Shown piece by piece: positions 40,040 to 59,976 of a stretch of 64,000 bases of DNA. Location: NCBI GenBank assembly GCA_965206595.1, contig OZ242214.1:4000001-4064000 (forward strand), read 5' to 3'. This stretch comes from Candidatus Latescibacterota bacterium (GTDB lineage: Bacteria; Latescibacterota; UBA2968; UBA8231). Position 1 is the first letter of the stretch. Every line of letters starts with the position of its first letter. The position numbers and the translations under genes are program-made. Below the pieces are notes generated by a model. The model searched no databases, was not told where the DNA came from, and saw nothing but the letters and a program-made list of their open reading frames with translations.

Positions 40040-40280
40040 TCCGCTCCCTCATGTGATCCAGTCCTTGGGAAGCAAGCTCGAGGAATGAATCTAGTTGCCA
40101 CCGCTCGACCGTGGGGTAATCCTGGAGAAACTCCTCGATGGAGTGCCCACCCTTGAGGTAAGCCACCAAGCTGTCTACCGGGACGCGCGTGCCGGCAAAC
40201 ACCAGATCGCCACTATGGACTTCTGGATCACGCCGGACAACCTTCTCCAGCGAGATTTCCCTGCGCACCGAGGTTCCCAT
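40023..40280 (-). CDS. DUF433 putative antitoxin
   Basis: DPEVHSG..VF.GTRVPV..L..YL..G.SIEEFL.DYP. Confidence 0.9.
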   Translation of the reverse strand: MGTSVRREISLEKVVRRDPEVHSGDLVFAGTRVPVDSLVAYLKGGHSIEEFLQDYPTVERWQLDSFLELASQGLDHMRERNASTS

Positions 40281-40956: not shown

Positions 40957-42275
40957 CTGGCGTCGAGGTACTCGCTGAACCAAAGACCGCCCAACGGCAA
41001 TCCTTCCTCGACCATGTTGTTCACAGTCGGATCGTCGCTGGCTCGTCGAATCTTTGAAAGACCATCCTCACCCTTCTCCAGAATCCAGACTTCCTCCGGG
41101 GAAAGCGCATCGACGAAATACGGCTGGTGTGTCGTAACAAAGACCTGCGAGCCCTTGCTTCCGGTCGCATGTTCCCGGAATTCGTTGGCCAGGGTCTCCA
41201 GGAGTTTATGATAAAGGCCGTTTTCCGGTTCCTCGATGCAGAGGAACGGCGCCGGATCCGGATCCTGGAGCAGCAGCAGGTAGGCGAAAACCTTCAGCGT
41301 CCCGTCGGATACTTGCTGGGCATAGAAGGGATCCTGAAAGCTCCTGTCGTTGAATTGCAGGAGCAGCCGGCCGTCATTGGTTCTTTCCGTGTCGATCCGA
41401 TCTATGCCCGGTATCCTTCCGGCTATCTCCTTCAAGACAGCCTTGAAACGTTGCGGATGTTCGCGCTCCAGGAATTGCACGACGTTGCCGAGATTGTCCC
41501 CTTGACTATTCAGATGTCTCTGAGGACCGGCCAGCGGCAAACTGCGAGCCGCGGCCGGGGTGAAGTAACTCAGGTACCATCCTTCGATAAAGCGGCGGAA
41601 TGCGGAGATTCGCGGATGTTGCTTCAAGGCGCCAACCGTAGCAATGCCAAGCCTGTGGCGGTCTTCCAACTCGATCTGTTCGGTCTCGTTGGGCTCCTCC
41701 TTCCTGCTCAGTCTTATCAGCTCTTCCACCTTCAATCGCTTCTTCTCGATATCGTCTTCCGCGATTGCTTCGTCCACCAAGCCCTTCATGTGGATGTCCC
41801 TCGCTTCATACCCTTCATCTCCCTTCCATGCCACACCCCGGCCGTCACTCAGCCACAAGAACGAGAACGGTCGCCCATAGCTCTGGTTTCTCCTTCTCTG
41901 TCTGAGACGCTCTCGCGATACATAAGGACGACCCGACTCGTCTGACTCTATGGCGATCTCATAGGTAATCGGACGGGCTCTTCCTTGTTCCCGGTAGTAC
42001 ACCTCGAACTCGACAGGCCCCGTCTCCCCCTGGGTCCGCAGCTTCTCGAAGCCGCCGCGACCCCGGGCGTCGCAAGCCTCTTCGACACCGAGTCTCAAGG
42101 CGTCGGCCAGGAATCCGAATGCATCGAAGAGAACACTCTTCCCTACTCCGTTCCTGCCGATCACCGCTGTCATGGGAGTGAGAGGTCGGTTCTCCTGTTC
42201 GTTCCACAGGCGCCCCAATGTCACATCCCTGAGCAGCTTGAAGTTCCTTACTCGAAACCCCTCTATCTTGGTCAT
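40953..42275 (-). CDS. AAA_21/AAA_15 ABC-type ATPase
   Basis: GRNGVGKS, SDGTLK, IEEPENGLY, TTHQP. Confidence 0.92.
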   Translation of the reverse strand: MTKIEGFRVRNFKLLRDVTLGRLWNEQENRPLTPMTAVIGRNGVGKSVLFDAFGFLADALRLGVEEACDARGRGGFEKLRTQGETGPVEFEVYYREQGRARPITYEIAIESDESGRPYVSRERLRQRRRNQSYGRPFSFLWLSDGRGVAWKGDEGYEARDIHMKGLVDEAIAEDDIEKKRLKVEELIRLSRKEEPNETEQIELEDRHRLGIATVGALKQHPRISAFRRFIEGWYLSYFTPAAARSLPLAGPQRHLNSQGDNLGNVVQFLEREHPQRFKAVLKEIAGRIPGIDRIDTERTNDGRLLLQFNDRSFQDPFYAQQVSDGTLKVFAYLLLLQDPDPAPFLCIEEPENGLYHKLLETLANEFREHATGSKGSQVFVTTHQPYFVDALSPEEVWILEKGEDGLSKIRRASDDPTVNNMVEEGLPLGGLWFSEYLDAR

Positions 42276-42279
42276 TTCT

Positions 42280-42687
42280 TCAGTCCTCCCGGCAGGTTGC
42301 CCGCTTCTCCGCCCACTGGATTACAGCCTCGGCGATCTCTATCGCATCCCGGTACGCCTCTTCGGACACAGGCTGGTCAACGCCTGGATAGCGCGTGTCC
42401 ACGGCATAGGGGGTGAGTCCCACAGCGCGACGAATCCTGTCCGGGACATCCTCACCATTCTCTTCAAGCATCGAGAGCAGAAGGGCCAGGTTGTGCACGT
42501 AAGGGAAATCGATGTTGCGCAAGATCATCACGGCCTTGACGGCCTTCTCGGCGGCTTGCTGCGCCTGAAAGCACAGGTCCTCCAAGTAGGCACCGGGGAC
42601 GCGGTTCCCCGCCATCGCGAGATTGCTTCTGGCGCGGTTCAGCCACTCGCGAGGATCATCCGGAGGAAACCGCTCAGGTGGACTCAT
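42280..42687 (-). CDS. HEPN domain protein
   Basis: WL.RA..NL..A, CFQAQQAAEKAVKA, HNL..L, Y...TRYP. Confidence 0.9.
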   Translation of the reverse strand: MSPPERFPPDDPREWLNRARSNLAMAGNRVPGAYLEDLCFQAQQAAEKAVKAVMILRNIDFPYVHNLALLLSMLEENGEDVPDRIRRAVGLTPYAVDTRYPGVDQPVSEEAYRDAIEIAEAVIQWAEKRATCRED

Positions 42688-42985
42688 AGACCACCCTTCC
42701 TTCCTGCAGCGCCGGCTTGATGACCAACGCATGGCTGTCCTTGTAGCGCTCTACGTCCGACGGCGAGACCAGGATCGCATCGACCGCGACCCGAACGCCG
42801 TACAACTTCTCGTAGATCCGGGTCCTGAGATTCGCGTCTCCTCCCTCTTTGATAATGAGAAGATCCACGTCGCTGTTCGGTGTCATGGCGCCCCGGGCAG
42901 CGGACCCGAAGAGGACGATGCGCTCCGGCTGTGCCACCTCCACGACGCGCCGGATGATGTCATCCAGGGTGTCTTGGTCAATCAC
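42674..42985 (-). CDS. Minimal nucleotidyltransferase (MNT) antitoxin
   Basis: LFGSAARG....SDVDLL; overlaps the HEPN gene. Confidence 0.92.
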   Translation of the reverse strand: MIDQDTLDDIIRRVVEVAQPERIVLFGSAARGAMTPNSDVDLLIIKEGGDANLRTRIYEKLYGVRVAVDAILVSPSDVERYKDSHALVIKPALQEGRVVYEST

Positions 42986-42997
42986 TTGGTGCTCGCC

Positions 42998-43570
42998 TCA
43001 TGTGACGCCGGCAGCGGTCCCCAGACGCCCGGCAAGGGCATCGAAATCCTCGGGACACTTCTGCCGAATCGCATCGATCCGGCGCGATGCCTCTTCTCCC
43101 AGAGGCTTGCGGCCACCGCCGGGCGCGTCTGACAAGCCGCGTTCGACGACAAACCGGTCGAAGTACTCCTCCTTGACTTGGATCTCCGCGCGCACCTCCG
43201 CCCAAGTCCAATCATCCGGCAACCTCAGGCCCGCAAGGACCCAGGTCTCGATTTCCTCCCAGGCATTCTCGGCCAGGAAGGCCCGATCGCTGCCGAATTG
43301 CACCTCGAGACGGTCGAGGCTCTGGCGACGATTCGTGTCGCCGTCACGATCAATGATCAGGATGAAGATATCCGTCATTTCCCCATGCTTTCTGACCACC
43401 TCTGCCATGCGTTCCGACTTCAGCGCTTCCCGGAAGCCACCGAGTAGGGGATCACGGCAAACCTCAACCTGCACATGCCGCCTACCAATAGATCGAAAGA
43501 GCCTTGAGAAAAGAGGTTTCAGAATGTACTGATCCTTGCGGAAATCCTCGGGGATGATGAGGACGTTCAC
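42998..43570 (-). CDS. TOPRIM-like partner of ABC ATPase
   Basis: LIIPED..D, IIDRDGD, EEIETWVL, CPE; GTGA overlap with the ATPase stop. Confidence 0.72.
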   Translation of the reverse strand: MNVLIIPEDFRKDQYILKPLFSRLFRSIGRRHVQVEVCRDPLLGGFREALKSERMAEVVRKHGEMTDIFILIIDRDGDTNRRQSLDRLEVQFGSDRAFLAENAWEEIETWVLAGLRLPDDWTWAEVRAEIQVKEEYFDRFVVERGLSDAPGGGRKPLGEEASRRIDAIRQKCPEDFDALAGRLGTAAGVT

Positions 43571-44874
43571 TCGCCGTCTCCCTCCGCTTCCTCGTAGTTT
43601 TCGGTGAAGGCCAGGGCGGTCTCCATCCAGCCTTCCATAAGCAGCCCTCCCAACCCGCTCCCGGACTTCCGCAGTTGTCTTGCGTTGGGCAGTTCGGCAA
43701 CCAGGCGAATGATGGCATCGTCCGAGTCTTCCAACCGGCAAACGATGGACATGTCCTCGAAGGTGGTGTCGTTGACAAGAGTCAGCAGATCCGGCGCATG
43801 GGTGGTGGTGATCATCTGAACTCCTCCCTTTGCGGCCTGCTTTTCGATCAGTTCCAGCAAGAGCGACTGGCGCGCCGGGTGAATTCCGGTGTCGATCTCC
43901 TCGAAGAAGTACAATCCATTGGACCTCTTGCCGAGCAGCAGGGCCAGCAGGGCGAGGAACCGGAGGGTGCCGTCCGAGGCGCTATAGGCGGATACCGTTC
44001 TCTCGTTGCCCTCCAGGATTTGGAGATGGACTCGACCGCTGGGGTCATGTGGAAATCTTAGATCCCTTACATCCATGGGGGTGAGTTCTCGCAGCCACGC
44101 CGTCAGGACATCCTTACGTTCGGCATCCGAGCAGAGGGCTTTGAGCACCACGGCCAGGTTCTCGCCTGAGTCTCCCAGGACAGTGTGACCAGGAAGGGCC
44201 GGCTCCCGCATGCGCTCCGGGGACAACTCCAGAAAGCGCATGCCGGCGAAGATGGCCATCGTCTGTAGAATGTGTGGATCCAGAAACTCCTTGCTGGGCT
44301 GGGATATCGATATGGGTTCACCCATTGTCTCCACCATAGAGTCGAGTTCCTTTTGGAAGGTAGGATCTCTCTCTCTGATCGATAGGAAGATTCTGTAAAG
44401 CAGGGGATAGCCATCCGCCGGCGTTGGTACGGAAGCAGCTCGATCGGGATTGCTGTTAACGGTGAAAGACCGGTGCTCCTTCGCATATCCCGGCTTGATT
44501 CTTCCGGTAAGTTTCTCTCGTGCAATCCGGAACTCATTGTTCTCTCTTTCGTATCCAACTTCGATCAAATAGCATACGTCTGCGGCCTTCAATTGGATGC
44601 CCACCTCAATTGAGAACCCGGATTGTCCGAACCTGACAATCTCATTCGCTGCTCCCCGGATCGGCTCCCACGCCCGCTGACCGCCGGGGCCGTACTTGCC
44701 GCCGATGATCTCCGCCAGCGTATAGCCCCGGCCGATGCCGTGCAGGAAGCGGAAAGCATCGCGGATATTGCTTTTGCCGCTGGCATTCGCGCCGACGATT
44801 ACGGTGAACGGGCCGACGCGCAGGGTCTCGTCGGCGAAGTTCTTGAAATTCACGAAGCGAATGGATGTAATCAT
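43567..44874 (-). CDS. AAA_21 ABC-type ATPase
   Basis: GANASGKSN, SDGTLR, FEEIDTGIHP, TTHAP. Confidence 0.92.
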   Translation of the reverse strand: MITSIRFVNFKNFADETLRVGPFTVIVGANASGKSNIRDAFRFLHGIGRGYTLAEIIGGKYGPGGQRAWEPIRGAANEIVRFGQSGFSIEVGIQLKAADVCYLIEVGYERENNEFRIAREKLTGRIKPGYAKEHRSFTVNSNPDRAASVPTPADGYPLLYRIFLSIRERDPTFQKELDSMVETMGEPISISQPSKEFLDPHILQTMAIFAGMRFLELSPERMREPALPGHTVLGDSGENLAVVLKALCSDAERKDVLTAWLRELTPMDVRDLRFPHDPSGRVHLQILEGNERTVSAYSASDGTLRFLALLALLLGKRSNGLYFFEEIDTGIHPARQSLLLELIEKQAAKGGVQMITTTHAPDLLTLVNDTTFEDMSIVCRLEDSDDAIIRLVAELPNARQLRKSGSGLGGLLMEGWMETALAFTENYEEAEGDGE

Positions 44875-48116: not shown

Positions 48117-48135
48117 GCAGCTGCTCGTCGCCCGT

Positions 48136-49641
48136 TCAGATGTAGAATCGAAAGGTGGGTTGCCGGTTAGTAACGGTCGGATTGCTCACAAGTATCTCTC
48201 CCACTGCATCAGAGAACTTCACAGTAACCGGCTGGGTGTCGCCAGCATTACAGGCGTTGTAATTGAGCTTCGTCAGACCGAGAATATCCCGAGCCACATC
48301 AACAATATCCGCCTCTCCATGCTGAATATCGATCTGGAGAGGCACCGGCGTTTCCCATCCATCGTAGGTTCCGAGACGCGGTTTGAACCCGGACCCGAAC
48401 AAATATCCCCGAGTTCCTGAATGCCTCCACAAGGTGCCGCGAAGCACCGGCCACGGTCTGTCCGGCCGGTACAGTCGCGGACCATCGTGCCAAGGACGCA
48501 CGCGAATGCCGACGACCTTCAGTCCCTTCGGGGCAGCAGACCTGTATCCTTTGAATTCCTCCGCACTGATGTCAGATCTCGAGTGGAGAAAGACTTCGGT
48601 CAAGCTCTTCCCATGTAGCTGAGTATATGTATCAAGTGCGCCCTTCAGTAGATCGTGTGCCGCTTTGGCTGTAAGACGAAACTGCTTCTCTATTGGAGAA
48701 TACCAGGGTCCATAGTTCCCCAAGAATACCACCCCATCCCCATCGTCAAGGAACATTTGGGCGGCACACGCGGCACTCTTCGGCCCGTCCCTGGCATCGG
48801 TCCTACGGAACGCAAGCCCGACATAGCACACGCCTTCTCTGGCAGTAGCCAGCTTCCATGGCTTCCCACCTCCCTTGTAGTACATCGTGGTCGACAAATT
48901 CCACATGCGATCTGACAACGGAGTCAGCTGCCGTGCCCCAAAAGGATTCTCGTCGTTGAGTCTCAAAGCCGATTCACGCACGATTTGAATCGGAACCCCA
49001 TAAACCATCGTCCGTGCTTTGATCTGCCTCCGGAAATCCAGCGACAGTTCGTACTGCTCTGGCGGGAACCTCGAAAAAGCATCGAGCTGACCCCTCCTAC
49101 GCGACTCTCGTCTCCTCTTGGAAATGACCTCCCCGGTCGGCTGTAGCACACGAGACATCGTCCGGCAAGTTTGATGTATTTCGTCAGGCACCACGCAGAC
49201 CATGAGGCTTACATGCTCCTCAATCTTCTGCAAATGCTCAAACGTCGAGAGGTACTGGTTCACGGCGGCAAAAACCCGCTCGTGGGGATCATGGCGATTA
49301 GCCACATCACTCAGTTTGTGGCTATCGAGTGCCTGTTGCCAAACAGGTTCGGTTCGCCAATCACACGAGAAGGCTGCCTCAAAGCCCGGGTACGGTGGCC
49401 ACAAGCGATGGCGGTCATCCGGGGCATCTGTCCATGGGCGGTGCATCGCACTCGACCACGCGGAAAACAGCTCCATACCTGCATGTGTGCCAACCACACC
49501 GTAGGATAGAGCTGCTGGATGACCGGGAGCGTCCGCGTCGTACGGGCCGAACAGAGACAGCCCATCACGCGGATGGGCGACCGCTTGACCGTACCGGAAT
49601 TCCAGTGCTGGCTCGTCCAGAATCACTATCTCCCTCAACAT
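48136..49641 (-). CDS. Short prokaryotic Argonaute (MID-PIWI, catalytically inactive), SPARTA-type
   Basis: EP.LEF...PRDGL.LFGP, FRRQIKA, PIQIVRES, YYK.GGKPWKL, LTKLNYN, PVTVKF...VGEIL, C-terminal FYI. Catalytic Asp positions read VGLAF and LHSRS. 501 aa. Confidence 0.93.
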   Translation of the reverse strand: MLREIVILDEPALEFRYGQAVAHPRDGLSLFGPYDADAPGHPAALSYGVVGTHAGMELFSAWSSAMHRPWTDAPDDRHRLWPPYPGFEAAFSCDWRTEPVWQQALDSHKLSDVANRHDPHERVFAAVNQYLSTFEHLQKIEEHVSLMVCVVPDEIHQTCRTMSRVLQPTGEVISKRRRESRRRGQLDAFSRFPPEQYELSLDFRRQIKARTMVYGVPIQIVRESALRLNDENPFGARQLTPLSDRMWNLSTTMYYKGGGKPWKLATAREGVCYVGLAFRRTDARDGPKSAACAAQMFLDDGDGVVFLGNYGPWYSPIEKQFRLTAKAAHDLLKGALDTYTQLHGKSLTEVFLHSRSDISAEEFKGYRSAAPKGLKVVGIRVRPWHDGPRLYRPDRPWPVLRGTLWRHSGTRGYLFGSGFKPRLGTYDGWETPVPLQIDIQHGEADIVDVARDILGLTKLNYNACNAGDTQPVTVKFSDAVGEILVSNPTVTNRQPTFRFYI

Positions 49642-49651
49642 CGGCACCCTA

Positions 49652-51052
49652 CTAATCTGCCTTGGCATCCTCGACCTCCGCGTCGTCCTCCCAATACCAC
49701 GCGGTGTACGCCTCATCGGGCTCGTCCACCAAATCGTCGTGGATACGAAGGGGAGCTTTCGAAACAATCGGCATGGCGCTGATGACGAGTTGCTGCTCTC
49801 CCTCCGGCCCGAAGCGGATATACAAATCCTCATCCGCCAGTAGCTGCGCTATACCGAGGGTTCTTGCGGCCCACTCTCTGTTGAACCATGTCTTGCATAG
49901 ATGTTTGCGGCGAGAGAGGATTCTCTGCTTCGTGAGCAGTGTGCCACTCGCATCTGTAAGGTAGACGCGATTCCTGAGCAACAGGACGAATGGGTCGATT
50001 GTGTCCGTCAGTACCGAAAACGATGGACTCAAGTGGTATCGGTATACCTCTCCCCCATCCCTGGTAGGATAGGTACGCTCCCCGACTCCGCTGAACCAGC
50101 TCCTCTTTCCATCGGGGAAGGTGAATGACACGCGGTCGTTACCTAAGAATCCCCGTGGGAGATACCACTGGCCCGTTTTCCTCGTGTTCCTCCTGTTCCT
50201 CCTCCCTCCCTCACGTCCGGGCTCCGCGGTGACGGAGTATTCCATTCCCGCATCCCTCAGAAGGGAGTCCAGACATCTATGAATCAGGCTAACCACCAGG
50301 TCACGCGTGTCAATTCCATCCACCTCCGCTGTGTCCTGCCAGGGAACTCTTCCCACACACTGAAATCGAGTACGTGCGCTCACGGCAGAAGGTGGGTCCT
50401 CAAACGCGAGTACACGGCGGCCGAACACATCCCGACAGGCCCACTCTCTCCGCAATGCGCGACGCTCGCCCCTGGAGAGATTGCTCTCAGCCTCGTACTT
50501 GTGAATGTATCGCGGCGTTTGCACAACCTCGAAGCAGTTGCTAATCAACTCCTCGGGTTCCTCGTCGACGGCGCTCGTTCCAACGATTGAGGCTATAGCA
50601 ACGCGGCGGCCGTTATCCAACACTCGTGGCGCACCGACTGACTGGAGTTTCTTGAGCAGGGCAGTGAGCCCCTCAGCCCAACTGGGGCAGAAGGGGATAT
50701 AGTTGATGGGTTGAAGATTCCAAGTGATTTGGTCCGGGCGGAGTCCTTCGGTATTCAGCGGGATTACAAAGTCCTCAATGCCCAACTGGCTTCCAATCGC
50801 GGTGCCCTTCAGCCACTCTCCCTGCGGATTCGGCTTTTTCATCGATGCCTGCGATAGAAGTGCAAGCATACGGAAAGTGCGTTGATTGATCGCTTCATCG
50901 ATGTCCGAAGGCCAGTTCTCCCCACCAAGTAGCTTCAGGCGATCGTACCATACAGCGTACCCTTCGGCGGCAAGTCGTCGGGCAAGCCAGTCGCACAGTG
51001 CCGACTGCTCGGTCGCGTAACTGATGAAGATGTGATCGCGTTCTTGTTTCAT
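49652..51052 (-). CDS. TIR-APAZ effector (SPARTA NADase)
   Basis: TIR motifs IFISYA...WL..RL..EGY.VW.D...L.GGE.W and Glu in PQGEW; APAZ-like C-terminus RR...K.WFNREW; acidic tail; 10 bp upstream of the short pAgo. Confidence 0.9.
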   Translation of the reverse strand: MKQERDHIFISYATEQSALCDWLARRLAAEGYAVWYDRLKLLGGENWPSDIDEAINQRTFRMLALLSQASMKKPNPQGEWLKGTAIGSQLGIEDFVIPLNTEGLRPDQITWNLQPINYIPFCPSWAEGLTALLKKLQSVGAPRVLDNGRRVAIASIVGTSAVDEEPEELISNCFEVVQTPRYIHKYEAESNLSRGERRALRREWACRDVFGRRVLAFEDPPSAVSARTRFQCVGRVPWQDTAEVDGIDTRDLVVSLIHRCLDSLLRDAGMEYSVTAEPGREGGRRNRRNTRKTGQWYLPRGFLGNDRVSFTFPDGKRSWFSGVGERTYPTRDGGEVYRYHLSPSFSVLTDTIDPFVLLLRNRVYLTDASGTLLTKQRILSRRKHLCKTWFNREWAARTLGIAQLLADEDLYIRFGPEGEQQLVISAMPIVSKAPLRIHDDLVDEPDEAYTAWYWEDDAEVEDAKAD

Positions 51053-51077: not shown

Positions 51078-51449
51078 TCAAGCCAAGGCCTCAATCCTCA
51101 CCTCGCCACGCGCCACCACTTCCACTCTCAGGCTGTGCCTCTTGAGCAATCCCATTCCTACGAGGGGAGTAGTATCGGCCGCAGCCACTTCCACCGGCCG
51201 GTCCTGCCCGTTCCACAACACTGTCCCAATGTACTCGTCGAATACATGTAGACTGCCGTCGGCGATTAGTGCCTGACCACGACCTTTCCAGGACAGATCC
51301 AGCCTGCGGATCAAGGCTGTTGGAAGGGTGAGATAGCCAGTGAAGCCGGTATCGATGATGGCCTCGACTTCCCGTCCCTCCCTGTCAACGCCGAGAAGGG
51401 TAAGGCGGATGGTTGCCTCCAGATTCTCGTTTACTGCACCCTCAATCAT
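51078..51449 (-). CDS. Clan AA (retropepsin-like) aspartic protease
   Basis: AIIDTGF.G.L.LP, LIADG, PLVGMGLL. Confidence 0.88.
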   Translation of the reverse strand: MIEGAVNENLEATIRLTLLGVDREGREVEAIIDTGFTGYLTLPTALIRRLDLSWKGRGQALIADGSLHVFDEYIGTVLWNGQDRPVEVAAADTTPLVGMGLLKRHSLRVEVVARGEVRIEALA

Positions 51450-51718
51450 GTCAGGCCACTGGCATGTGATGCGCCGAGCCGGTGTAGCGCACGGTGGCCG
51501 ATGCGGATCAACCAGGGCTGTGCATCGGGACAACGCGCAAACAGTTGGTCGGAGGCGGCAAGGGGATCGTCCCCCACCTCGAACTCGCCGGTCTCAATGT
51601 CAATCGCCACGATCCGTCCGCTGTTGCCCTCTTCCACCTGCGGCCTCACTCGTTGCTCGTAGATCTCCTGACCAAGCCGGGCGAACTCCTCTTTGCTATG
51701 GCGCGGCTGTCGTTCCAT
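51446..51718 (-). CDS. Small protein coupled to the aspartic protease (DUF5678-like)
   Basis: G.EIYE...P.VE....GRIVAIDIETGEFE...WLIRIG; AGGAG RBS; ATGA overlap with the protease. Confidence 0.75.
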   Translation of the reverse strand: MERQPRHSKEEFARLGQEIYEQRVRPQVEEGNSGRIVAIDIETGEFEVGDDPLAASDQLFARCPDAQPWLIRIGHRALHRLGASHASGLT

Positions 51719-51732
51719 GCTGTTCTCCTTTC

Positions 51733-52373
51733 TCAGATCTCGATCTCCGCCGCAGACTCTTGAGCCGAGCGGCCGGCGACGGATGCGTGCAGACACTGGA
51801 AGTCAGTCTCGTTCCTTCCCCGAGGGCCTGACCCCAAGGAAGCCGGATCGATGCGAGTCTGGCCGTTCAGCCGGCGAACCGCGAACAGCGACTCGTCCTC
51901 CAGCGGATCAGGCAGGATCGGGGAGTGCGTGGTGATGATATGCTGGATCTGGTTCAGGCTCTCTTGGGTCCTCAATAACTCCGCGATCAACTCGATCCGC
52001 CGCGGGTGGACTTCATCCTCCGGTTCCTCGATCCCTACCAGGGCCGGACCCTGGTCCACTCCTGACAGCGCCAGGAGACCAAGCATCCTGAGAGAGCCCT
52101 CCGACAGGACGCGGGCCGGAATGGCTATATCGCCTTCCTTGAGGCGGAGCTCGACCTCGCCGACATCGCTGACCTCCACCTCGATTCCATCGATGTTGGG
52201 CATCAGCGCTCCTTCAACGTGCGGCTCGTCCCCAGCTTGGAGAGCAGTTGCAGGGCATCCAGCAGATTGCTCTTGCCTGCGGCGTTCGGCCCGACGAGGA
52301 CGACGAGGGGGGAGAGGGTTACTTCGACGTCCTTCAGAGACTTGAATCCCCGGATATGGATTCGTCTCAGCAT
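51733..52373 (-). pseudogene. ABC-type ATPase with large internal deletion
   Basis: Walker A GPNAAGKSN (52203..52373) is joined out of frame almost directly to LSEGSLR, IEEPE and TTHSP. Confidence 0.85.
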
Positions 52374-52454
52374 GGTGGGCTCTCCAGCGCCTTCCACGCC
52401 GGCTTCCGGCCTTCATCATGGCACGGCCTCATCAATCGACAACGCAACAGAGGT

Positions 52455-52955
52455 TCATCCCAGGAAGGCATCGGGTTCCTGGTCAGGTTCTCTGGCCTTC
52501 AGTTTCCTGTCCTTGGTCCAGATGTGCACTCGCCCCCCTGCCCCCCGGTACCTTGTCTGCTTGAGCCTCCGGGCTTCGTCGATCAGTGTACCATCGCTCA
52601 AGTCAATGCCTTCGAGGACGTGAGTGTCGACAAAGCGTGCTACTGCCTCCCTGAGCCAGCGAGCCTCCCGCGAAAGCAAGACGGTCCATGGCATGCCTTC
52701 GTCGAGACTGGACAGGACGCTATCTCGCATCTTCCCGGCCAAAGACACCCGCTGATTGCCGTCCGCCACATCGGCGATATGGCTGGCCAACTCGTAGACG
52801 CAAGGCGCAGTGACGTACAGCCGCGCTCCGCTCCTAGCAGCATCGGAGACGCGCGTCTTTACTTCCTCAACTGCTTTCTCCGTCGAACACCCAGGAACGG
52901 CGAACAGCTCCAGCAGGTAGCTGGTATCGATCAGGTAGACCGACAGCGGGTTCAC
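52455..52955 (-). CDS. PIN-domain-like protein
   Basis: YLIDTSYL, VYEL, LSD...I, IWTKDRKL; start codon overlaps the ATPase stop. Confidence 0.75.
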   Translation of the reverse strand: MNPLSVYLIDTSYLLELFAVPGCSTEKAVEEVKTRVSDAARSGARLYVTAPCVYELASHIADVADGNQRVSLAGKMRDSVLSSLDEGMPWTVLLSREARWLREAVARFVDTHVLEGIDLSDGTLIDEARRLKQTRYRGAGGRVHIWTKDRKLKAREPDQEPDAFLG

Positions 52956-54241
52956 TACAGAGCCTCGACCCACTTCAGTACCTTGTCGCGTTGGCGTTCC
53001 TCGAACTCCGGTGCCAGGTACTGCTCGACGACACGACGCGAGACGAGATCCCCCAGCTGTCCGCGCTCAAGGAACTCATCGAACCTCGGAAGGTCGGTCA
53101 GCTCGATGAGATCCGCGGCTTCCCTGGTCTGGCTCCAAGTGCAGAGAACCACTCCCTTCATCTGCTCGTCCGTCAGGCTGTTCATGGTGGCGGGGTTGTG
53201 CGTGGTAACCAGTACCTTCAGCTTGCGTCGCTGAGTGGCATCGGCTATCGCGGCGGTCAATACCTCTACTCGACTCGGGTGGAGCCCGTTGTCGAACTCC
53301 TCCACGATGACGCGCGAGCCCTCCTGGACGGTATCCAGGGCCGTCAGGATGGCCAGGGTTCTCAGTGTTCCATCGGACAAGGCCCGGGCGTCCACGGTGA
53401 AACCTGTCCTCTCCTGAAGTCCGAAGATCACGTCCCCGAGATCGGTCGTGGTGAAGCTGAATTCTTCGTACGGCTCGTCGGGAAGCTGGCGTATTCGAGA
53501 CAGCAGCCCAGCCAGCGATGCCTGCTGTGCTTCGTCTCCTACGCTAAGGGCGTAGAGAACCGCCGACAGGTTGGCGCCATCCCGGGAGAGAACACTGTTA
53601 CCGATCCGCTCGTAACCATGCATCAATTTGGGATTCGGGTCGAAGACGAAGGAGGCCTGCAAGTGACGTATGACGATCCCCACCAGTCGATTGCAGTGCT
53701 TGAGATTGCGGTTCTTCTGTGCGATCTCCTGATACTGATATAGAACGGACCGTTCTGATGAGGCGGCGGTCTGGGGTTTCCTGCCACCGCGGGCGAAGTT
53801 GTCGTATCTCACCGTTAGATCTAGTGATGCTGATCCAGGATTCCTTGGAAGCGTTTCATAGATCACACGGTCGGCAAAGGTCAGTTCTTCAGCGGCAATC
53901 TGGGGATGCGGTTTCGTAAAGAGGCTCAGGATGTAGCAAAGCCTCTTTGGCTCTTCCTCCAGCTTCAAGCTAGCAGTGAATCCCAAAGTGAATCTATCTC
54001 CACCAGCTCGACCGCAAGCCTGAAGACCTCCCCGGATCTGAAGGCCGACGGACGGACGACCAACGTCCGCGATCTCATGGAGGGGTTGACCCCGGGCAAC
54101 GAAGGAAAGCAGCTCGATGGCCTCGATGACATTGCTCTTGCCCGAGCCGTTCGGTCCGATCAGAAGCGTGAACGGCCGGAGCAAGTCGATTTGGGTGTCC
54201 TCGAAGCCCTTGAAATCAGTAAGGTGATGCATTCTGGCCAC
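52955..54241 (-). CDS. AAA_21 ABC-type ATPase
   Basis: GPNGSGKSN, LSDGTLR, VEEFDNGLHP, TTHNP. Confidence 0.92.
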   Translation of the reverse strand: MARMHHLTDFKGFEDTQIDLLRPFTLLIGPNGSGKSNVIEAIELLSFVARGQPLHEIADVGRPSVGLQIRGGLQACGRAGGDRFTLGFTASLKLEEEPKRLCYILSLFTKPHPQIAAEELTFADRVIYETLPRNPGSASLDLTVRYDNFARGGRKPQTAASSERSVLYQYQEIAQKNRNLKHCNRLVGIVIRHLQASFVFDPNPKLMHGYERIGNSVLSRDGANLSAVLYALSVGDEAQQASLAGLLSRIRQLPDEPYEEFSFTTTDLGDVIFGLQERTGFTVDARALSDGTLRTLAILTALDTVQEGSRVIVEEFDNGLHPSRVEVLTAAIADATQRRKLKVLVTTHNPATMNSLTDEQMKGVVLCTWSQTREAADLIELTDLPRFDEFLERGQLGDLVSRRVVEQYLAPEFEERQRDKVLKWVEAL

Positions 54242-54509
54242 CTTGGAATGACTGGGTTTGTTTTCGGCTTGGCATCTTCCTTCCTACCGCCTCCATTCCC
54301 GCATCTTCTCCCTCTCCCGGACGAATCTCGCTTCTTCTGGCAACAGCTCGATGGCCCGGGGCCAGGCTTCCTCCACCGCCGGTGGGCTTCACGGGCCAGC
54401 AGGATCTTGCTCTGGGCAAACTCCAGAAGCGCCCGAGGATCCGGCGTACACCGAGTCCCCCGCCCGCTCGAAGTAGCTGAGCGGCGGGCTCGCGGAAGGC
54501 CGCCTGACC

Positions 54510-54582
54510 GGGCACCCGTTCCGACTCCACGCCGCGGCAATGGAGCAGATCGTCGAGGTTGATGGGGAGAATGGCGCTCATG
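54510..54582 (-). pseudogene. 5' stub of an AlbA_2/Schlafen-type protein gene
   Basis: MSAILPINLDDLLHCRGVESERV resembles the N-terminus of that family, then similarity stops. Confidence 0.5.
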
Positions 54583-54598
54583 GAGATGGATTCTCTTC

Positions 54599-56248
54599 TC
54601 ACATCCCCCACACCGTGACCGGGGCCCCGCCTTCGGTCTCGTCGCGGCGGTAGACCTTCTCTTCCCAGGACTTGCCCTCGGTGCGGTCGAAGATCACCAG
54701 GTGCCCTTCGGCCGACGCGCAGCGCTCCATGTAGCCCCGCGTCTGCTCCAGCCCTTCGCCAAGGGTCCGCTCCAGGCCCCGGTGCAGCACCTTGCACTCG
54801 ATGACCACCTTCTGCACCCCGCCCGCATCACCCGGCAGCGGCCACACCAGCAGCAGATCCGTGCGCAGGCGCCCGAGGCCGTACTCCCGCTCGATTCGCC
54901 CCCCGCTGTTGAGGATGCGCTGCAGAAACGCCTGCAGCAGCAACTGCGGCCCGGCCTCCTTGTACTGGAAACGCTCCACCCAGTGCTCGGAGTGCTCGCG
55001 GAAAAAACCCTGGAAGGCGGCCAGCAGCTTGCCCACATCCAGGGCTCCGCCCTCTCCGACGTACCAGGCCGGGTCGTGGGGGATCGACATCTCCTGGGTG
55101 GTCCAGGTCAGGTCGCGCGGGATCACCTCGCGGTAGATCGGGTTGGCGATGCGGACCGGGCTGTCCCGGGCCACCAAGCCGAGGTCGCGGACGTACTGCA
55201 GGTCGTCGGCGGCGATGGGCCCGGCGTCATCGGCGCCTCTCAGCAGCGGCTCGATCACCCTGCGCACCCGCTCCTCCTGGAGCTTGTCGGTGAGCTGGTC
55301 CAGATGCGTCTCCCGGAGCAGGATCAGTTGCTCGCGCGCATCCTGGATGGCCTCGGCGGTCACCTCCCGGCTTCGGTCGCGGCCAGCCTTGTTCCTGAAG
55401 CAGACTTCGTAGGCCAGGGCGTTGACCAGCCACGGCTGCCCTTGGGTCAGCTCCCAGATCGTGGCCCGCGCCTCCTCGCTGAAGGCCTGGCCGGTCTCCT
55501 CTGTGTGCTGCGCAAGCAGGGACTCAACCTCGTCGCGCGAGAAATCCTCGAGCCGCAAGGACTCGGCGATGATGTTGAAGGGGCTGCCGCCGGCGATGAT
55601 GGCGCCCTCGGACGACGAGCGGATGCGGTAGTCGCGCACCTCGCGCACCCCGCACAGGATGACGCTCTGGGGAAAACTCCGAGGGCGCTCCGGGTAGCCG
55701 GCTCGCAACTGCCGCAGCACCGCCAGCAGGCTGTCCCCGATCAGCGCGTCGATCTCGTCGAGCAGCAGCACCAGCGGCCGGGGGTCCGACTCGGCCCAGC
55801 GGGACAGGATCCCGTGTAGAGCAGCGGACGGGCCGGAGCCCTCGAAGATGCCTAGCCAGGCGTCAGCGACAAAAAGGTCGTCGAGGGTCTGGCGCGCCGC
55901 GCGGGCGAGGGCACTGAGGATCGCCCGCATCGCCGCTTCCAAGTCTTCCCGCGCCGCCTGGCCCGCCTCGACGTTCACGTAGACGCAGCGGTACTCCCCC
56001 GCGGCGCCGCTGTTGAGCAGATCTCTCAGAGCCAGCAGGGCCGAGGTCTTGCCGGTCTGCCGGGGCGCGTGCACCACGAAGTACTTCTGCTGCCGGATCA
56101 GCATCAGCACCTCGTCGCGGTCCAGCCGCTCCAACGGCGGCACGTGATAGTGATCCGCCGCCACGATCGGGCCCGCCGTGTTGAAGAACCGCCTGGCTGT
56201 CGTCGTCACTGGTCCCGCTCCCTCGCTGGGCGCCTTGCCTCTCGACAT
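54599..56248 (-). CDS. AAA ATPase with C-terminal PD-(D/E)XK nuclease domain (alternative start GTG 56209)
   Basis: FFNTAGP, APRQTGKTS, LLLDEID, EREY..G..RTDL...VIECK. Confidence 0.85.
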   Translation of the reverse strand: MSRGKAPSEGAGPVTTTARRFFNTAGPIVAADHYHVPPLERLDRDEVLMLIRQQKYFVVHAPRQTGKTSALLALRDLLNSGAAGEYRCVYVNVEAGQAAREDLEAAMRAILSALARAARQTLDDLFVADAWLGIFEGSGPSAALHGILSRWAESDPRPLVLLLDEIDALIGDSLLAVLRQLRAGYPERPRSFPQSVILCGVREVRDYRIRSSSEGAIIAGGSPFNIIAESLRLEDFSRDEVESLLAQHTEETGQAFSEEARATIWELTQGQPWLVNALAYEVCFRNKAGRDRSREVTAEAIQDAREQLILLRETHLDQLTDKLQEERVRRVIEPLLRGADDAGPIAADDLQYVRDLGLVARDSPVRIANPIYREVIPRDLTWTTQEMSIPHDPAWYVGEGGALDVGKLLAAFQGFFREHSEHWVERFQYKEAGPQLLLQAFLQRILNSGGRIEREYGLGRLRTDLLLVWPLPGDAGGVQKVVIECKVLHRGLERTLGEGLEQTRGYMERCASAEGHLVIFDRTEGKSWEEKVYRRDETEGGAPVTVWGM

Positions 56249-56299: not shown

Positions 56300-59200
56300 C
56301 TACTCCGACGCCTCCATCACCGACCCCGCCGCGATGGTGAAGGTGCGCGACTCCCGGTCCCCCACCACCAGCTTGGCGAAAGGGTTCTGCACCCGCATTA
56401 GACACGGACGGGGCGTGGCGCAGTCGAAGACGACGTAGAGCCAGTACCGTTCTCCAAGGTTGCAAGCCTTGATCCATTCGTTCTCGCTCATCTCCACGCC
56501 TTCGGTGCCAGCCCTTCCCTTGACTTCTATGGCTCGCGGTTCCATTCCCTCTCGGCGGGACAGGAGGTCGAAGCCCGGCCAGTCAGGCAGTCCGGCCCTC
56601 CTCGCCATCGCCGGCTTGCAGACATCCTGCACCTGGGCGCCCCGTTCCTCCTCGTAGGCGGTGGCTACCTCCATGGCGATGGCCTCGACATCGGCGTCGT
56701 AGCGCTCCGCCTCCCCGGCGTCCTGGGCCGGCACCACCAGGGCATGCACCAGGAATTCGGCTTCCCCCGCCCGGATGAGGTCCGGCTCCGACCGCATCTC
56801 GGCGAGCCGGTGGGCACGCACGGCGTTCAGGCTCCGCTGCCGTTCCCTGACCTTGGCCAACTCCTCGGCCGCCTGGCGGTCCCCGGCCCCCGCCTTCTCT
56901 CTGAGGCTGGACCGGGCGGCGGCCAGCTCGGCGGCCTGGTAGTCGAAGCCGCGGTTGACGAACTCCAGGCGCCTGGGCAGATCGTCCAGGCGGCGTTGGC
57001 GGTTCGCCTGCACGATCTGCTCGCTCACTTCCTCGTCAAGGAAATCTGCGGTCTCTCCGGCCATGCCGCGCGCCAGGGTGGCCAGGGGTACCCCGCCCGG
57101 GGCGATGCCGCCGGCTCCGCGCAGCAGAAGCAGGTGTTCGACGGGGCACTCCTTCACTGCGCCATCACTGGTCTGGCGCAGCCCGACGAGGCGCGACTCG
57201 ACCAATTGGGGTTCCCCTTCAGCCTGGCCGCGGGCGTCCAAGGGAGGTTGCTGCTGGACACTGACCCGCGCGATGTGAAACAGGTAAGCCTCAGTCGCAT
57301 AGGGGTCGCTGAACAATGCTCCACGCAGCCCTTCGGCTCCGAGACGCTCCCGCACCGCGGCCGAGAGGGTGTCGAAGACCGGCTCGCCGGGGTGCAGCCA
57401 GATCGCCTCTTCGCGGCTCTCGGGTTTGTACACGGTCAGCCGCTCCCTCGCCTCCTCCGGATAGGCTTCGAGGGCGGGCAACAGAGGGTCGGCCGCGCGG
57501 GGCCGGTCCGGCATCAGGCCGAAAGCGCCGCCCGGATCCCCTTCGAGGCGCAGGTCGAGGAGCGGCGCCGATCTCTCGACAAAACGGCGCACGTACCCGG
57601 GCAGCAGCCGGCGGTAGTTCTCCTGTTCCATCTCCTCGTTGAGATCGTCCAGCCGGCCGCGCACCTCGCCGCCGTCCCCGTAGAGGGAGCGCTCTCTTGC
57701 CGCAAGGGCCCGGACCTGCTCTTCCGTGAGGTGGCCTTCCATCTGACTGGCTGCGGCCTCGCCGCCGTCCTCACCGGTCACCGCTTGCTCCAGGTACGCC
57801 CGGACGGACAGCCCCTCGAAGAGACGGCCCACCACGTCGAAGACCTTGTCCGAGCTGAGCTGTTGGCGGATCGCTTCCAGCTTGTCGAGCAGCGTCTTGA
57901 GCACCCTACCCTCGCGCGTGCCGGCGGAGACGAGGTTGACGATGACTACCGGATCGTGCTTCTGGCCGTAGCGGTGGATGCGCCCCATCCGCTGCTCGAG
58001 GCGGGCCGGGTTCCAGGGGATGTCGTAGTTCACCATGAGCCAGCAGAACTGCAGGTTGATCCCCTCGCCGGCGGCGTCGGTGGCCACCAGGTAGGTGGCC
58101 CCGCCCTGGTCGGCCGGCCGGCGGAACAACTCGACCTGGCGTTCCCGCTCCGGGTAGGCCAGGCCGCCGTGGATCAGGGCGACGCGGCCGGTGTAGCCGA
58201 GGCCTTCGAGGCGGCGCACCAGGAATGCCGCCGTGTCCCGGTGCTCGGTGAAAATGATGAGCTTCTCGTCGCGGTAGTGCGGCGCCCCAAGCACCTCCCG
58301 CAGCTTCTCGAACTTGGACTCCTCGCCGGCGTCAAAGAGCTTCTGGGCCTTGTCGAGCAACCCGGCGACCTTGACACGCTCCGCCTCCAGCTCCGCGAGG
58401 GTGACCGCCACCGTGCCCTCGAGGGCCTGGCTCTCGAACTCCTCGTGCTGCTCCCCTTCGTCGCTGGCCGCCTCCTCGTCAGCGGTGCTCGTTTCGAAGA
58501 GGTCGTCGAGCCGGCCGAGGCGTTGCTGCCGCCTCGCGAGCTGCTCCTCGGTGAGGCGGCCGCTGCGGATGTCGTCGATCAGACCCTCCAGCTTCTCGAG
58601 GCGGCGCTCGAAGGAGCGCAGAAGGGCATAGGTGGAGCTGGCCAGGCGGCGCTGAAAGACGCTCATGGCCAGCCGGGCGGCGGAACGGTTCAGCGCCTTT
58701 GCCCAGTTGTAGTGATAGCGCATGTACTCGGTGGTCTCGTCGTACAGCTCCTGCTCACCGTCCGGTCCCTGGGACAGCTCGTAGCTGAGGGTGTCGCAGT
58801 TGCGCTGCGGGTAGAGCGGCCGATGGTCGAAGTGGACCATCTCCTCCTTGGTGCGGCGGATGAAGTGCCGCTGCCGGGAGTCGGGCGGGAACTCCTCGAA
58901 GGCGTCGAAGGTGGAAAGGGCATCCGGCAGCAGCAGGCGCCACAGGTAGTAGTAGGGGTGGTCCTTGCCCATGTGCGGGGTGGCCGTCAGCAGCAGCAGG
59001 TGCTGCGCGGACCAAGGGAGCTCCCACCGATCCTTGTCGTCGGACTCGGCGCCGGCCAGGGCCTCGGCCAGCCTGTAGCGGCCCGTCTTGCGCACCCGGA
59101 AGTCCGGCTGACGGTCCGCTGACAGCTTGTGAGCCTCGTCGAAGACCACGAGGTCGTAGGGGTCGGTCTGCGGGTCCTTGAGGTGGCCGAACATGCGCTC

Positions 59201-59884: not shown

Positions 59885-59924
59885 TCTGCCTTCTATCCTT
59901 CTGCGGTAGATTCGGTTACGCCAG

Positions 59925-59976
59925 ATTGTACCCAATGGTCCCGTGATTTGTCAAATCGCTTATAGCATGTGCTATA
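59925..59976 (-). promoter_or_regulatory. Sigma70-type promoter with two overlapping or adjacent palindromes
   Basis: Minus strand TTGACA (59954-59949), 18-bp spacer, TACAAT (59930-59925). Inverted repeats GATTTG-T-CAAATC (59945-59957) and TATAGCA-TG-TGCTATA (59961-59976). Confidence 0.7.

Follow-up and report, generated by a model that had tools for sequence, protein, structure and literature searches.

A SPARTA short Argonaute module embedded in the Hma operon of a Candidatus Latescibacterota bacterium

The 64,000-nucleotide stretch of Candidatus Latescibacterota DNA analysed here (the window) carries a short prokaryotic Argonaute (pAgo) and a TIR-APAZ partner, the two subunits of a SPARTA system, within an operon of restriction-like appearance, an arrangement that raises the question of whether the two defences act as one or are simply inherited together. 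The surrounding operon is of the Hma type, with the helicase-nuclease HmaA, the methylase HmaB, the ATPase HmaC and three cargo slots, and SPARTA occupies the first inter-gene slot, between hmaA and hmaB, in the same minus-strand orientation as the Hma genes (Table 1). PADLOC profiles recover all three core proteins (HmaA, 5.8e-161; HmaB, 9.7e-119; HmaC, 3.7e-74), and Pfam assigns Helicase_C, SNF2-rel_dom and NOV_C (2.6e-15) to HmaA, DUF1156 to HmaB (8.7e-19) and DUF499 to HmaC (1.6e-16). HmaA, whose likely start is ATG 59884 within a listed reading frame that opens at TTG 59935, features GAGKT, DEAH and D...EVK motifs; HmaB presents the motifs FAGGG (residue 137) and DPPY (residue 637), with a hypervariable segment at residues about 501–700. 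HmaB and HmaC score under the NCBIfam equivalog cut-offs, and we therefore consider the window Hma to represent a divergent subfamily.

Table 1. Features of the Hma operon and its cargo in the window (positions of the window; all on the minus strand)
Feature	Position	Strand	Basis
Sigma-70-like promoter match (11 of 12; TTGACA-18-TACAAT) immediately upstream of hmaA	59925..59954	-	
HmaA: N-terminal HTH_3, SNF2/DEAH helicase, C-terminal NOV_C nuclease domain	56300..59884	-	Pfam, PADLOC
Slot 1 cargo upstream of SPARTA	51078..56248	-	Pfam, PADLOC
Slot 1: AAA_35 ATPase	54599–56248	-	
Slot 1: PDC-M07A ABC ATPase	52955–54241	-	
Slot 1: ATPase remnant	51733–52419	-	
Slot 1: clan-AA aspartic-protease-like gene	51078–51533	-	
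TIR-APAZ gene, predicted NADase effector subunit of SPARTA	49652..51052	-	Profile and solved-chain matches
Short pAgo gene (MID+PIWI)	48136..49668	-	PADLOC, PDB chains, MID pocket residues
Spacer, pAgo stop to HmaB start, 19 nt	48117..48135	-	Read directly
HmaB, DUF1156 amino-methyltransferase, 1081 aa	44871..48116	-	Pfam, PADLOC, motifs
Slot 3 cargo, HmaB to HmaC	39701..44874	-	Pfam, PADLOC
Slot 3: PDC-M07A-like ATPase with partner of about 200 aa		-	
Slot 3: MNT-HEPN pair	42280–42985	-	Pfam
Slot 3: HEC-01A ATPase with DUF4276-like partner		-	
Slot 3: DUF5615 PIN-like gene	39701–40039	-	
HmaC, DUF499 ATPase, 1105 aa	36387..39704	-	Pfam, PADLOC

All 16 genes between 59884 and 36387 share a single strand, and several of their junctions are short-gapped or overlapping, including 4-nt overlaps of HmaB with the gene that follows it and of the DUF5615 gene with HmaC. 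This layout suggests that hmaA, hmaC and everything between them are probably transcribed unidirectionally from a promoter upstream of hmaA. Between positions 43000 and 61000 the match in front of hmaA is the one promoter-like site, a count that is not significant alone given a mean of 2.9 in shuffled sequences, together with six terminator-like sites against a shuffle mean of 10.6, so that the scan says little about operon structure apart from that site, and the same motif scan returned neither a promoter-like nor a terminator-like site in the spacer that separates pAgo from HmaB. A preliminary sequence-only reading of the locus had placed an intact SPARTA 19 bp upstream of the methylase, and this description holds: both reading frames are full length, the HmaB ATG lies at 48116, and bases 48117–48135 separate it from the pAgo stop.

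On sequence grounds the gene pair is a canonical SPARTA, with both genes full length and E-values far beyond chance. Read from the sequence, the TIR-APAZ frame runs from ATG 51052 to a TAG stop at 49652 and encodes 466 residues, which match Pfam TIR_2 (E = 2.1e-19), the PADLOC profile Aga_TIR-PNTD1-PNTD2 (3.4e-65, model positions 2–421 of 430) and the TIR-APAZ chains of solved SPARTA structures (about 4e-19, with nine distinct PDB sequences at E <= 0.001). The alignment to these chains covers mainly the TIR domain and the similarity is moderate only; counted along it, Glu79 is the counterpart of Glu77 in the solved chains, so that the catalytic glutamate, whose exchange for alanine (E77A) yields the catalytically dead mutant of the Map and Crt proteins in the literature consulted, is present. 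The protein ends in an acidic C-terminal tail, and homologues spanning at least 70% of it are encoded in 71 of 80 related loci. The pAgo gene terminates at TGA 48136–48138 and has two candidate starts, ATG 49668 (510 aa) and ATG 49641 (501 aa), the former preceded by GGAGG six nucleotides upstream and overlapping the TIR-APAZ stop. Its product aligns with PADLOC pAgo_I (1.3e-166, model positions 3–493 of 493) and with the solved SPARTA Argonaute chains from end to end (residues 2–507, 9e-98 to 4e-93). The Pfam profile search found no match to the Piwi model, and Pfam alone would thus overlook SPARTA here. According to the portions of the literature available, the SPARTA pAgo clade lacks the DEDX tetrad, and by its clade membership together with that tetrad loss the window pAgo is likewise predicted to be catalytically inactive.

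Among the MID pocket residues named in PMC11851103, the pAgo retains K217, Q228, I229, K265 and N471, that is, five of seven in the guide 5′-phosphate pocket, plus the C-terminal I510, with changes relative to the solved system at H207 (R213 here) and Y148 (H165). These two substitutions could be taken as signs that the window SPARTA is a decaying, non-functional passenger, as could the ATPase remnant in the same slot, the deletion of SPARTA in two relatives (L016 and L017) and a possible TIR-APAZ frameshift in a third (L005). We regard such decay as very improbable in view of the uninterrupted, full-length frames relative to both profiles and solved chains, and of the retained catalytic glutamate, pocket residues and C-terminal isoleucine. 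Furthermore, R213 is invariant across an 18-sequence alignment of pAgo relatives down to 57% identity, and is therefore better viewed as a trait of the clade than as a lesion.

To what extent the arrangement recurs was examined in the best 80 SPARTA loci out of at least 579 relatives in the collection. The order HmaA-…-TIR-APAZ-pAgo-HmaB is shared with the window by 13 of these 80 nearest loci, and the 14 Hma-embedded pAgos form one clade (SH-aLRT 97), which occurs in metagenome-assembled genomes labelled Latescibacterota, Chloroflexota and Poribacteria. Five further loci (L014, L025/L031, L038 and L044), assigned to three or four more lineages, have SPARTA within or next to different Hma systems, whose HmaA, HmaB and HmaC genes are bona fide by PADLOC. 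SPARTA thus meets Hma in at least four separate lineages among the 80 loci, the union label requiring four to five changes on the pAgo tree, and its placement varies by lineage: between hmaA and hmaB or between hmaC and hmaB, following hmaB or hmaC, or ahead of hmaA. Pfam profiles were run on 58 of the 119 large neighbouring frames that came into question (L012–L043), the remaining 61 being judged by tblastn alone; within the 58, DUF1156 and DUF499 appear only at L014, L025 and L038, matching the tblastn result. The co-occurrence check that the sequence-only reading had called for is hence answered in the affirmative, with the same block in 13 loci and an association in five others. A chance, one-off adjacency of SPARTA and Hma was considered and is ruled out by the recurrence in 13 of 80 loci and the single pAgo clade.

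Within the block itself, what surrounds SPARTA is fluid. Among the 13 relatives, slot 1 can be as short as 12 nt or as long as 4.8 kb and slot 3 measures between 0.15 and 4.7 kb, each with differing gene content. The pAgo lies no more than 60 nt from HmaB in 10 of the 13, and extra defence-type genes intervene in three (L003, L007 and L008). HmaA and TIR-APAZ diverge in parallel, their pairwise identities being correlated (Pearson 0.90), and SPARTA-linked HmaAs are scattered over the entire HmaA subfamily tree. Clustering at 68% identity or above gives at least 120 HmaA clusters versus about 53 pAgo clusters, a comparison confounded by the clustering, gene length and fragmentary contigs; under the same confounders, only three of the longest contigs, matched on size, are common to the listed HmaA and pAgo clusters.

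Such recurrence can be read as the signature of a single pathway, in which the HmaA translocase/nickase, working on unmethylated invader DNA, would expose ssDNA to be sensed by guide-loaded pAgo, turning restriction that is under way or has failed into NAD+ depletion. Consistent with this reading are the block in the window and 13 relatives within a single pAgo clade, the close pAgo-HmaB spacing in most of them, the further Hma associations with their four to five changes on the tree, the report that the NOV_C domain of HmaA nicks supercoiled DNA (PMC11232893), and the circumstance that the available text of Koopal et al. leaves access to target ssDNA unexplained. Against it, SPARTA is functional alone in E. 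coli and APAZ is, across 283 RefSeq homologues, the only protein specifically tied to short pAgos in the sections of Koopal et al. at hand; the majority of related SPARTA loci are without Hma; additional cargo separates pAgo from HmaB in three of 13 loci; in L016 and L017, Hma is intact around a SPARTA that deletion has reduced to a remnant; and placement relative to the Hma genes changes between lineages. The composition of the SPARTA genes is also unlike that of the core: GC3 is 0.60–0.65 in the window SPARTA versus 0.86–0.90 in the Hma core and is lower than that of the core in 13 of 13 related loci, so that the SPARTA genes are compositionally foreign to it. On balance we consider a single pathway unlikely. 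Marginally more doubtful still is its narrower form, in which, within the HTH-HmaA subfamily, SPARTA would be a fourth module, kept as part of a composite system of restriction and Argonaute-triggered suicide and licensed by HmaA-made ssDNA; were it true, the repeated independent joining of SPARTA and Hma would reflect selection for synergy. The HmaA helicase-nickase could conceivably supply ssDNA to SPARTA.

The distribution of SPARTA outside Hma bears directly on this point. No Hma gene lies within 10 kb in 46 of the 65 evaluable rows of the pAgo tree, and the 21.5 kb available for the close relative L012 contain none. Among plasmids, a pAgo relative occurs in 78 records of the collection, with identity under 60% throughout, and an HmaB relative in 124; Hma was absent from all five plasmid SPARTA loci examined out of the 78, and no accession was common to the 40 pAgo and 60 HmaB matches listed. 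SPARTA is thus common outside Hma, which makes an independent function possible. Together with its activity alone in E. coli and the remnants in L016 and L017, this distribution speaks against the coupling of restriction to Argonaute-triggered death that had been put forward from the sequence: of that overall reading, the nesting and its recurrence stand, and the proposed coupling mechanism is unsupported.

A second component of the proposed coupling, the supply of SPARTA guide RNAs by neighbouring PIN/HEPN RNases, is in our estimation barely credible. It rests on proximity, the HEPN gene (42280–42732) and the DUF5615 gene being on SPARTA's strand, and both lie beyond HmaB, in another, highly variable slot. 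The HEPN gene is overlapped and preceded by an MNT nucleotidyltransferase gene (42674–42985; Pfam Polbeta 8e-11, NTP_transf_2 2e-10), and with its own MNT directly upstream it is expected to be the toxic member of a HEPN-MNT toxin-antitoxin pair. By tblastn, no SPARTA locus among the 80, the 13 that share the Hma block included, encodes a homologue of the window's HEPN or DUF5615 protein, and the two genes therefore cannot be conserved guide suppliers. In E. coli, moreover, Koopal et al. describe guides that come from the general transcriptome.

We therefore favour, with fairly good confidence, the view that the window SPARTA is an autonomous system embedded as cargo in the Hma operon, captured in a hotspot, inherited as part of the block and providing a second layer of defence by abortive infection. 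The linkage would then follow from capture in a known insertion hotspot and subsequent one-block inheritance, with no requirement for biochemical dependence, and inheritance as one block would link the transfer of SPARTA and Hma. In the proposed sequence of events, hmaA to hmaC would be transcribed in one direction and SPARTA probably co-transcribed with Hma. Hma would act first, on unmodified invader DNA, with self DNA methylated by HmaB and with HmaA combining SNF2 translocase and NOV_C nickase functions, and SPARTA would form the second layer independently of it. By homology to the Maribacter and Crenotalea systems, the mechanism known for SPARTA is predicted to hold for the window pair: the pAgo/TIR-APAZ heterodimer would take up 5′-phosphorylated small RNAs from the transcriptome, binding to complementary ssDNA of a highly transcribed, multicopy invader would induce tetramerisation, and the TIR domains would then hydrolyse NAD(P)+. 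Weighing against the cargo reading, the block shows more conservation than might be expected of a passive passenger, with all 14 Hma-embedded pAgos in one clade, SPARTA-linked HmaAs present across the subfamily tree and HmaA identities tracking those of TIR-APAZ, and the minimum of four SPARTA-Hma lineages is more than we would expect from defence-island clustering alone, an expectation set by judgement and not by a matched control.

That Hma operons harbour nested defence genes is itself already known, since two papers describe the hotspot, which affects about 63–67% of loci: Payne et al. report embedded genes in 931 of 1,485 Hma systems, with 22.8% of the embedded genes assigned to known systems and 96.7% oriented like the flanking system, and PMC11232893 gives insertions in 66.5% of hma loci, along with defence against T4 by HmaA alone via its nickase domain. 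The latter also places MCA3012 and MCA3014, candidates for TIR-APAZ and pAgo, beside hmaC in Methylococcus capsulatus Bath. SPARTA or pAgo as Hma cargo found no mention in the literature covered, which, among texts pairing Argonaute with DUF499 or Hma, took in Payne et al.; no paper among those listed combines 'Argonaute' with 'DUF1156'; and the main text of Payne et al. contains neither 'pAgo' nor 'SPARTA', its single mention of Argonaute not concerning cargo. Payne et al. raise the question of whether embedding brings linked transfer and co-regulation only, or synergy between a modification-based first-line and an abortive second-line defence. Since the part of Koopal et al. consulted presents APAZ as the only specific partner, the Hma-resident SPARTA clade offers a concrete natural test case, which the further independent SPARTA-Hma junctions strengthen and for which the operon is small enough to be cloned and dissected.

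Compared with the SPARTA systems of clade S2A (Maribacter polysiphoniae, Crenotalea thermophila and Bab), the window pair has the same order of TIR-APAZ then pAgo, with coding regions that overlap or abut and similar lengths (about 450–470 and 500–510 aa), and shares the catalytic glutamate, most MID pocket residues, the C-terminal isoleucine and the acidic TIR-APAZ tail. It differs in its moderate similarity, in the H207-to-Arg and Y148-to-His changes, and in its residence inside another defence operon, whereas the sole specific partner seen by Koopal et al., in the text available, is APAZ. Relative to Hma as described by Payne et al. (2021/2024) and, for Halomonas meridiana, in PMC11232893, the operon follows the same A-B-C order on one strand with inserted defence genes, and encodes the same NOV_C/DUF3883 SNF2 helicase, DUF1156 methylase and DUF499 ATPase; its version is divergent, with PADLOC scores below those of the L014 Hma genes, its HmaA bears an N-terminal HTH_3 domain, and its cargo is unusually heavy, with 12 further ORFs and gene remnants in two of the three slots. 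PrrC in EcoprrI, BrxU in BREX and Septu in Hma likewise set a death- or damage-inducing module into a modification-based host system with matching orientation. For PrrC, physical and regulatory ties to the host restriction-modification system are established; the trigger predicted for the window SPARTA, guide-target pairing, needs no input from Hma as far as known. Embedded modules of this kind are discussed by Payne et al. as a possible layered or back-up defence.

We find an intact SPARTA pair, consisting of a short pAgo and TIR-APAZ, inside an Hma operon whose genes from hmaA through hmaC are all carried on a single strand. The operon, which the sequence-only reading had described as restriction-like, proves to be an Hma system with PADLOC matches to the HmaA helicase-nuclease, the HmaB methylase and the HmaC ATPase. 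The proposed position of SPARTA directly before the DUF1156 gene also holds, with both genes matched in full and exactly 19 nt separating the pAgo stop (48136-48138) from the DUF1156 gene ATG (48116). TIR-APAZ matches Pfam TIR_2 (2.1e-19), PADLOC Aga_TIR-PNTD1-PNTD2 (3.4e-65, positions 2-421 of 430) and the TIR-APAZ chains of solved SPARTA complexes (about 4e-19), and its Glu79 aligns to Glu77 of the solved chain, the alanine mutant of which is catalytically dead (Koopal et al., PMC9097488). The short pAgo, whose start is either ATG 49641 or ATG 49668, the latter with a GGAGG six nt ahead of it, matches PADLOC pAgo_I (1.3e-166, positions 3-493 of 493) and, end to end, the solved SPARTA Argonaute chains (9e-98 to 4e-93). 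When the CrtSPARTA residue names of PMC11851103 are mapped via alignment to the solved chains, the MID pocket retains K217, Q228, I229, K265, N471 and the C-terminal I510, with H207 replaced by Arg213, invariant across the 18-sequence alignment of the window pAgo and 17 relatives, and Y148 by His165. Clade membership and the literature suggest that the DEDX tetrad is absent.

Features of the window, grouped by system (slot 1, hmaA to SPARTA; slot 3, hmaB to hmaC)
Feature	Position	Strand	Remarks
Sigma-70-like site	59954-59925	minus	TTGACA-18-TACAAT, upstream of hmaA
HmaA	56300-59884	minus	HTH_3, SNF2/DEAH helicase, NOV_C nuclease; PADLOC 5.8e-161
AAA_35/AAA_22 ATPase, 549 aa	54599-56248	minus	Slot 1, directly after hmaA
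PDC-M07A ABC ATPase		minus	Slot 1, between AAA_35 ATPase and ATPase remnant; profile searches
AAA_21 ABC ATPase remnant	51733-52419	minus	Slot 1; internal deletion and frameshift against L011 homologue
Clan-AA aspartic-protease-like gene, about 150 aa	51078-51533	minus	Slot 1, just upstream of TIR-APAZ
TIR-APAZ, 466 aa	49652-51052	minus	Pfam TIR_2, PADLOC, solved SPARTA chains
Short pAgo	48136-49668	minus	PADLOC pAgo_I, solved SPARTA Argonaute chains
HmaB	44871-48116	minus	DUF1156, FAGGG and DPPY motifs; PADLOC 9.7e-119
HmaB hypervariable segment	46017-46616	minus	Residues about 501-700
PDC-M07A-like ATPase and partner of about 200 aa		minus	Slot 3
DUF5615 PIN-like gene	39701-40039	minus	Slot 3, next to HmaC
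MNT nucleotidyltransferase, 103 aa	42674-42985	minus	Slot 3; overlaps HEPN gene start
HEPN gene	42280-42732	minus	Slot 3; paired with MNT
HEC-01A ATPase and small DUF4276-like partner	40175-42275	minus	Slot 3
HmaC	36387-39704	minus	DUF499; PADLOC 3.7e-74
DUF2971 gene	35151-36257		Adjoins low-GC stretch, beside hmaC
Type I R-M system	22925-29683		hsdM, hsdS, hsdR
Abi_C-domain gene	25819-26631		Embedded between hsdS and hsdR
GTPase-associated conflict system	15256-22079		GASH, DO-GTPase2, DO-GTPase1, GAP1-N1 with EAD1, caspase with EAD1

The hmaA start is likely ATG 59884, with GAAGG upstream, and the string of genes down to hmaC would be co-transcribed from the hmaA promoter. HmaA carries an XRE-type HTH_3 domain at its N-terminus, as do most of the at least 120 homologues listed, and since a strong sigma-70-like site lies just upstream, autoregulation of the operon is possible (59780-59954). 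Outside the operon the window holds further defence island content, including a DEAD helicase gene, and a low-GC stretch in the 34001-36257 region (0.477 for 34001-36000) lies immediately beside hmaC.

To place this arrangement among its relatives, one genome per species was scanned with a pattern from the 18-sequence pAgo alignment, yielding at least 599 pattern matches and at least 579 confirmed relatives, from which the best 80 by window similarity (L001-L080) were taken forward, each with flanks of up to 10 kb. Neighbours were identified by tblastn with 16 window proteins; a Pfam scan covered 58 of 119 large neighbouring ORFs, the remaining half being judged by tblastn alone. Of the 80 loci, 71 have a TIR-APAZ match that covers at least 70% of the query, and homologues of HmaA, HmaB and HmaC occur in 16, 16 and 13, respectively. 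The co-occurrence of short pAgo with DUF1156/DUF499 loci, named as a check by the sequence-only reading, is borne out: the window order HmaA-[slot 1]-TIR-APAZ-pAgo-[slot 2]-HmaB-[slot 3]-HmaC is common to 13 of these 80 nearest loci (L001, L002, L003, L005-L011, L013, L016 and L017), which are labelled Latescibacterota, Dehalococcoidia, Caldilineaceae, 'Chloroflexi bacterium' and Poribacteria and show 71-91% pAgo and 63-92% HmaA identity to the window.

The SPARTA-Hma block thus recurs in related genomes, and other cargo turns over around SPARTA. Across the 13 loci slot 1 spans 12 nt (L010) to 4.8 kb (L009) and slot 3 0.15 kb (L016) to 4.7 kb; slot 2 measures at most 60 nt in ten and holds extra genes in L003, L007 and L008 (OLD-like ATPase-TOPRIM with DUF2806; AAA_21 ATPase with an AbiJ-like gene). 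The window's AAA_35/AAA_22 ATPase, without a PADLOC match, has homologues in 4 of the 80 loci (tblastn) and a GC3 of 0.90 that resembles the Hma core rather than cargo. In the ATPase remnant, two different frames match residues 9-68 and 291-448 of L011's intact homologue (448 aa), and residues 69-290 are missing. SPARTA also exists without Hma, and Hma with a deleted SPARTA: L012 (72% pAgo identity) has no Hma gene in 21.5 kb of sequence, and L016 and L017 have lost the greater part of TIR-APAZ together with pAgo residues 1-214, and their remnant (9165-10891 in L016, the same in L017) comprises pAgo residues 215-510 and about 7% of TIR-APAZ, beside intact HmaA, HmaB and HmaC. The TIR-APAZ frame of L005 is interrupted, which may be an assembly error, and L004 (81% pAgo identity) is a 6.3-kb contig, too short to judge Hma linkage.

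Several cargo genes recur. In L002 and L011, too, the clan-AA protease-like gene lies just upstream of TIR-APAZ, and the copies of these two loci and the window share 64-94% identity; L013 has a 179-aa ORF between the two genes and, after HmaB, a second copy that is 50% identical. Four loci, L006 (7894-8418), L007, L016 and L017, have a 174/175-aa ORF in the interval from hmaA to TIR-APAZ, and the L006 copy, the one scanned, matches Pfam Zeta_toxin and AAA_33. The HEC-01A ATPase/DUF4276-like pair recurs in the HmaB-HmaC slot of L001, L007, L009 and L013 (ATPase 68-77% identity), and an AAA_21 and DUF4276 pair is reported between hmaC and hmaB in Syntrophus aciditrophicus (supplement, PMC11232893).

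In a quick IQ-TREE phylogeny of 81 pAgo rows, the 14 rows with the window arrangement form one clade with L004 (SH-aLRT 97). The label "any Hma gene within 10 kb" changes 5 times on this tree, and 4 times once 16 unlabelled loci below 12 kb are left uncounted (19 rows with, 46 without); because the 80 loci were kept from at least 579 relatives by window similarity, 19 of 65 is not an unbiased frequency of Hma linkage. A FastTree phylogeny of 135 HmaA sequences scatters the 14 HmaAs linked to SPARTA over the whole subfamily, and their groupings mirror the pAgo tree: (L007, L008, L013), (L006, L016, L017), (L001, L003) and (window, L011). Pairwise identities co-vary with those of HmaA for TIR-APAZ (Pearson 0.90) and pAgo (0.64), and HmaB co-varies poorly with all three (0.26-0.37) and with HmaC (0.63). 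HmaB residues about 501-700 look like a swapped target-recognition module, with identity to L011, the closest locus, at 20-40% versus 90-96% in the flanks and a GC3 of 0.47 versus 0.86 for the N-terminal part.

SPARTA looks compositionally foreign to the Hma core, also in related hosts that have the block in common, because its GC3 is the lower in the window (TIR-APAZ 0.65, pAgo 0.60; HmaA 0.88, HmaB residues 1-500 0.86, HmaC 0.89) and in all 13 related loci (0.47-0.63 below a flanking core of 0.59-0.89). Across those loci SPARTA keeps to its range whatever the GC3 of the core.

The sequence-only reading had further proposed a coupling of the two systems, in which neighbouring PIN/HEPN RNases could supply guides and the helicase/nuclease of the host operon could supply ssDNA. 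The first proposal is contradicted, since the HEPN gene is paired with MNT in what is predicted to be a HEPN-MNT toxin-antitoxin-type pair (42280-42985), and tblastn finds HEPN and DUF5615 homologues in none of the 80 related loci. The helicase proposal seems to us quite unlikely; highly transcribed multicopy plasmids activate SPARTA expressed on its own in E. coli (Koopal et al., PMC9097488). We favour a SPARTA that would act autonomously by its published mechanism, in a layered defence where Hma would come first and NAD+ depletion second.

PADLOC also identifies genuine Hma genes beside SPARTA in more distant loci, at junctions independent of the window's: HmaC (1.5e-228), HmaB (5.7e-258), a GIY-YIG-like ORF and SPARTA in L014; HmaC, DUF7680 and REase-TIR-APAZ with pAgo in L025, with HmaB and a PLD-helicase further on (L031 being a frameshift-rich relative); HmaC, then REase-TIR-APAZ with pAgo in L038; and SPARTA, one opposite-strand gene, HmaA (1e-173), SoFic and HmaB in L044. 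An opposite-strand S8 peptidase and AAA ATPase lie directly downstream of SPARTA both in L025, a cyanobacterial MAG locus (12360-15858), and on a Sphingobium plasmid (L081, 11569-14904). Another SPARTA clade, labelled Poribacteria, has a type IIG-like N6_Mtase/HSDR_N_2 gene at a fixed place upstream of SPARTA in L021, L032 and L041 (about 4400-6680) and downstream of it in L023 (11610-14819), so synteny of a whole clade with a modification enzyme is not confined to Hma.

Published surveys describe Hma as a recipient of such insertions. HmaA by itself protects against T4 via its NOV_C nickase, and insertions occur in 66.5% of hma loci, a region termed a defence-gene insertion hotspot (PMC11232893); among 283 RefSeq homologues, APAZ proteins are the sole proteins specifically associated with short pAgos (Koopal et al., PMC9097488). 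Table S7 of PMC11232893 lists Methylococcus capsulatus Bath MCA3005-MCA3014, where a TIR_2 gene (MCA3012) and a hypothetical gene (MCA3014) come directly behind hmaC (MCA3011) and may form a further SPARTA-Hma junction. Because Pfam assigns short pAgos no label, junctions of this kind would escape neighbourhood tables built on Pfam. The main text of Payne et al. (10.1101/2024.01.29.577857), as distinct from its figures and supplements, mentions neither 'pAgo' nor 'SPARTA'. We propose that SPARTA-Hma linkage probably reflects hotspot capture followed by joint inheritance. Payne et al. report embedded genes in 931 of 1,485 Hma systems; of the embedded genes, 96.7% are in the flank's orientation and 22.8% belong to known systems, and of all Septu systems only 0.7% lie within Hma. 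As explanations for embedding they consider a genomic sink, hitch-hiking, back-up and co-regulation.
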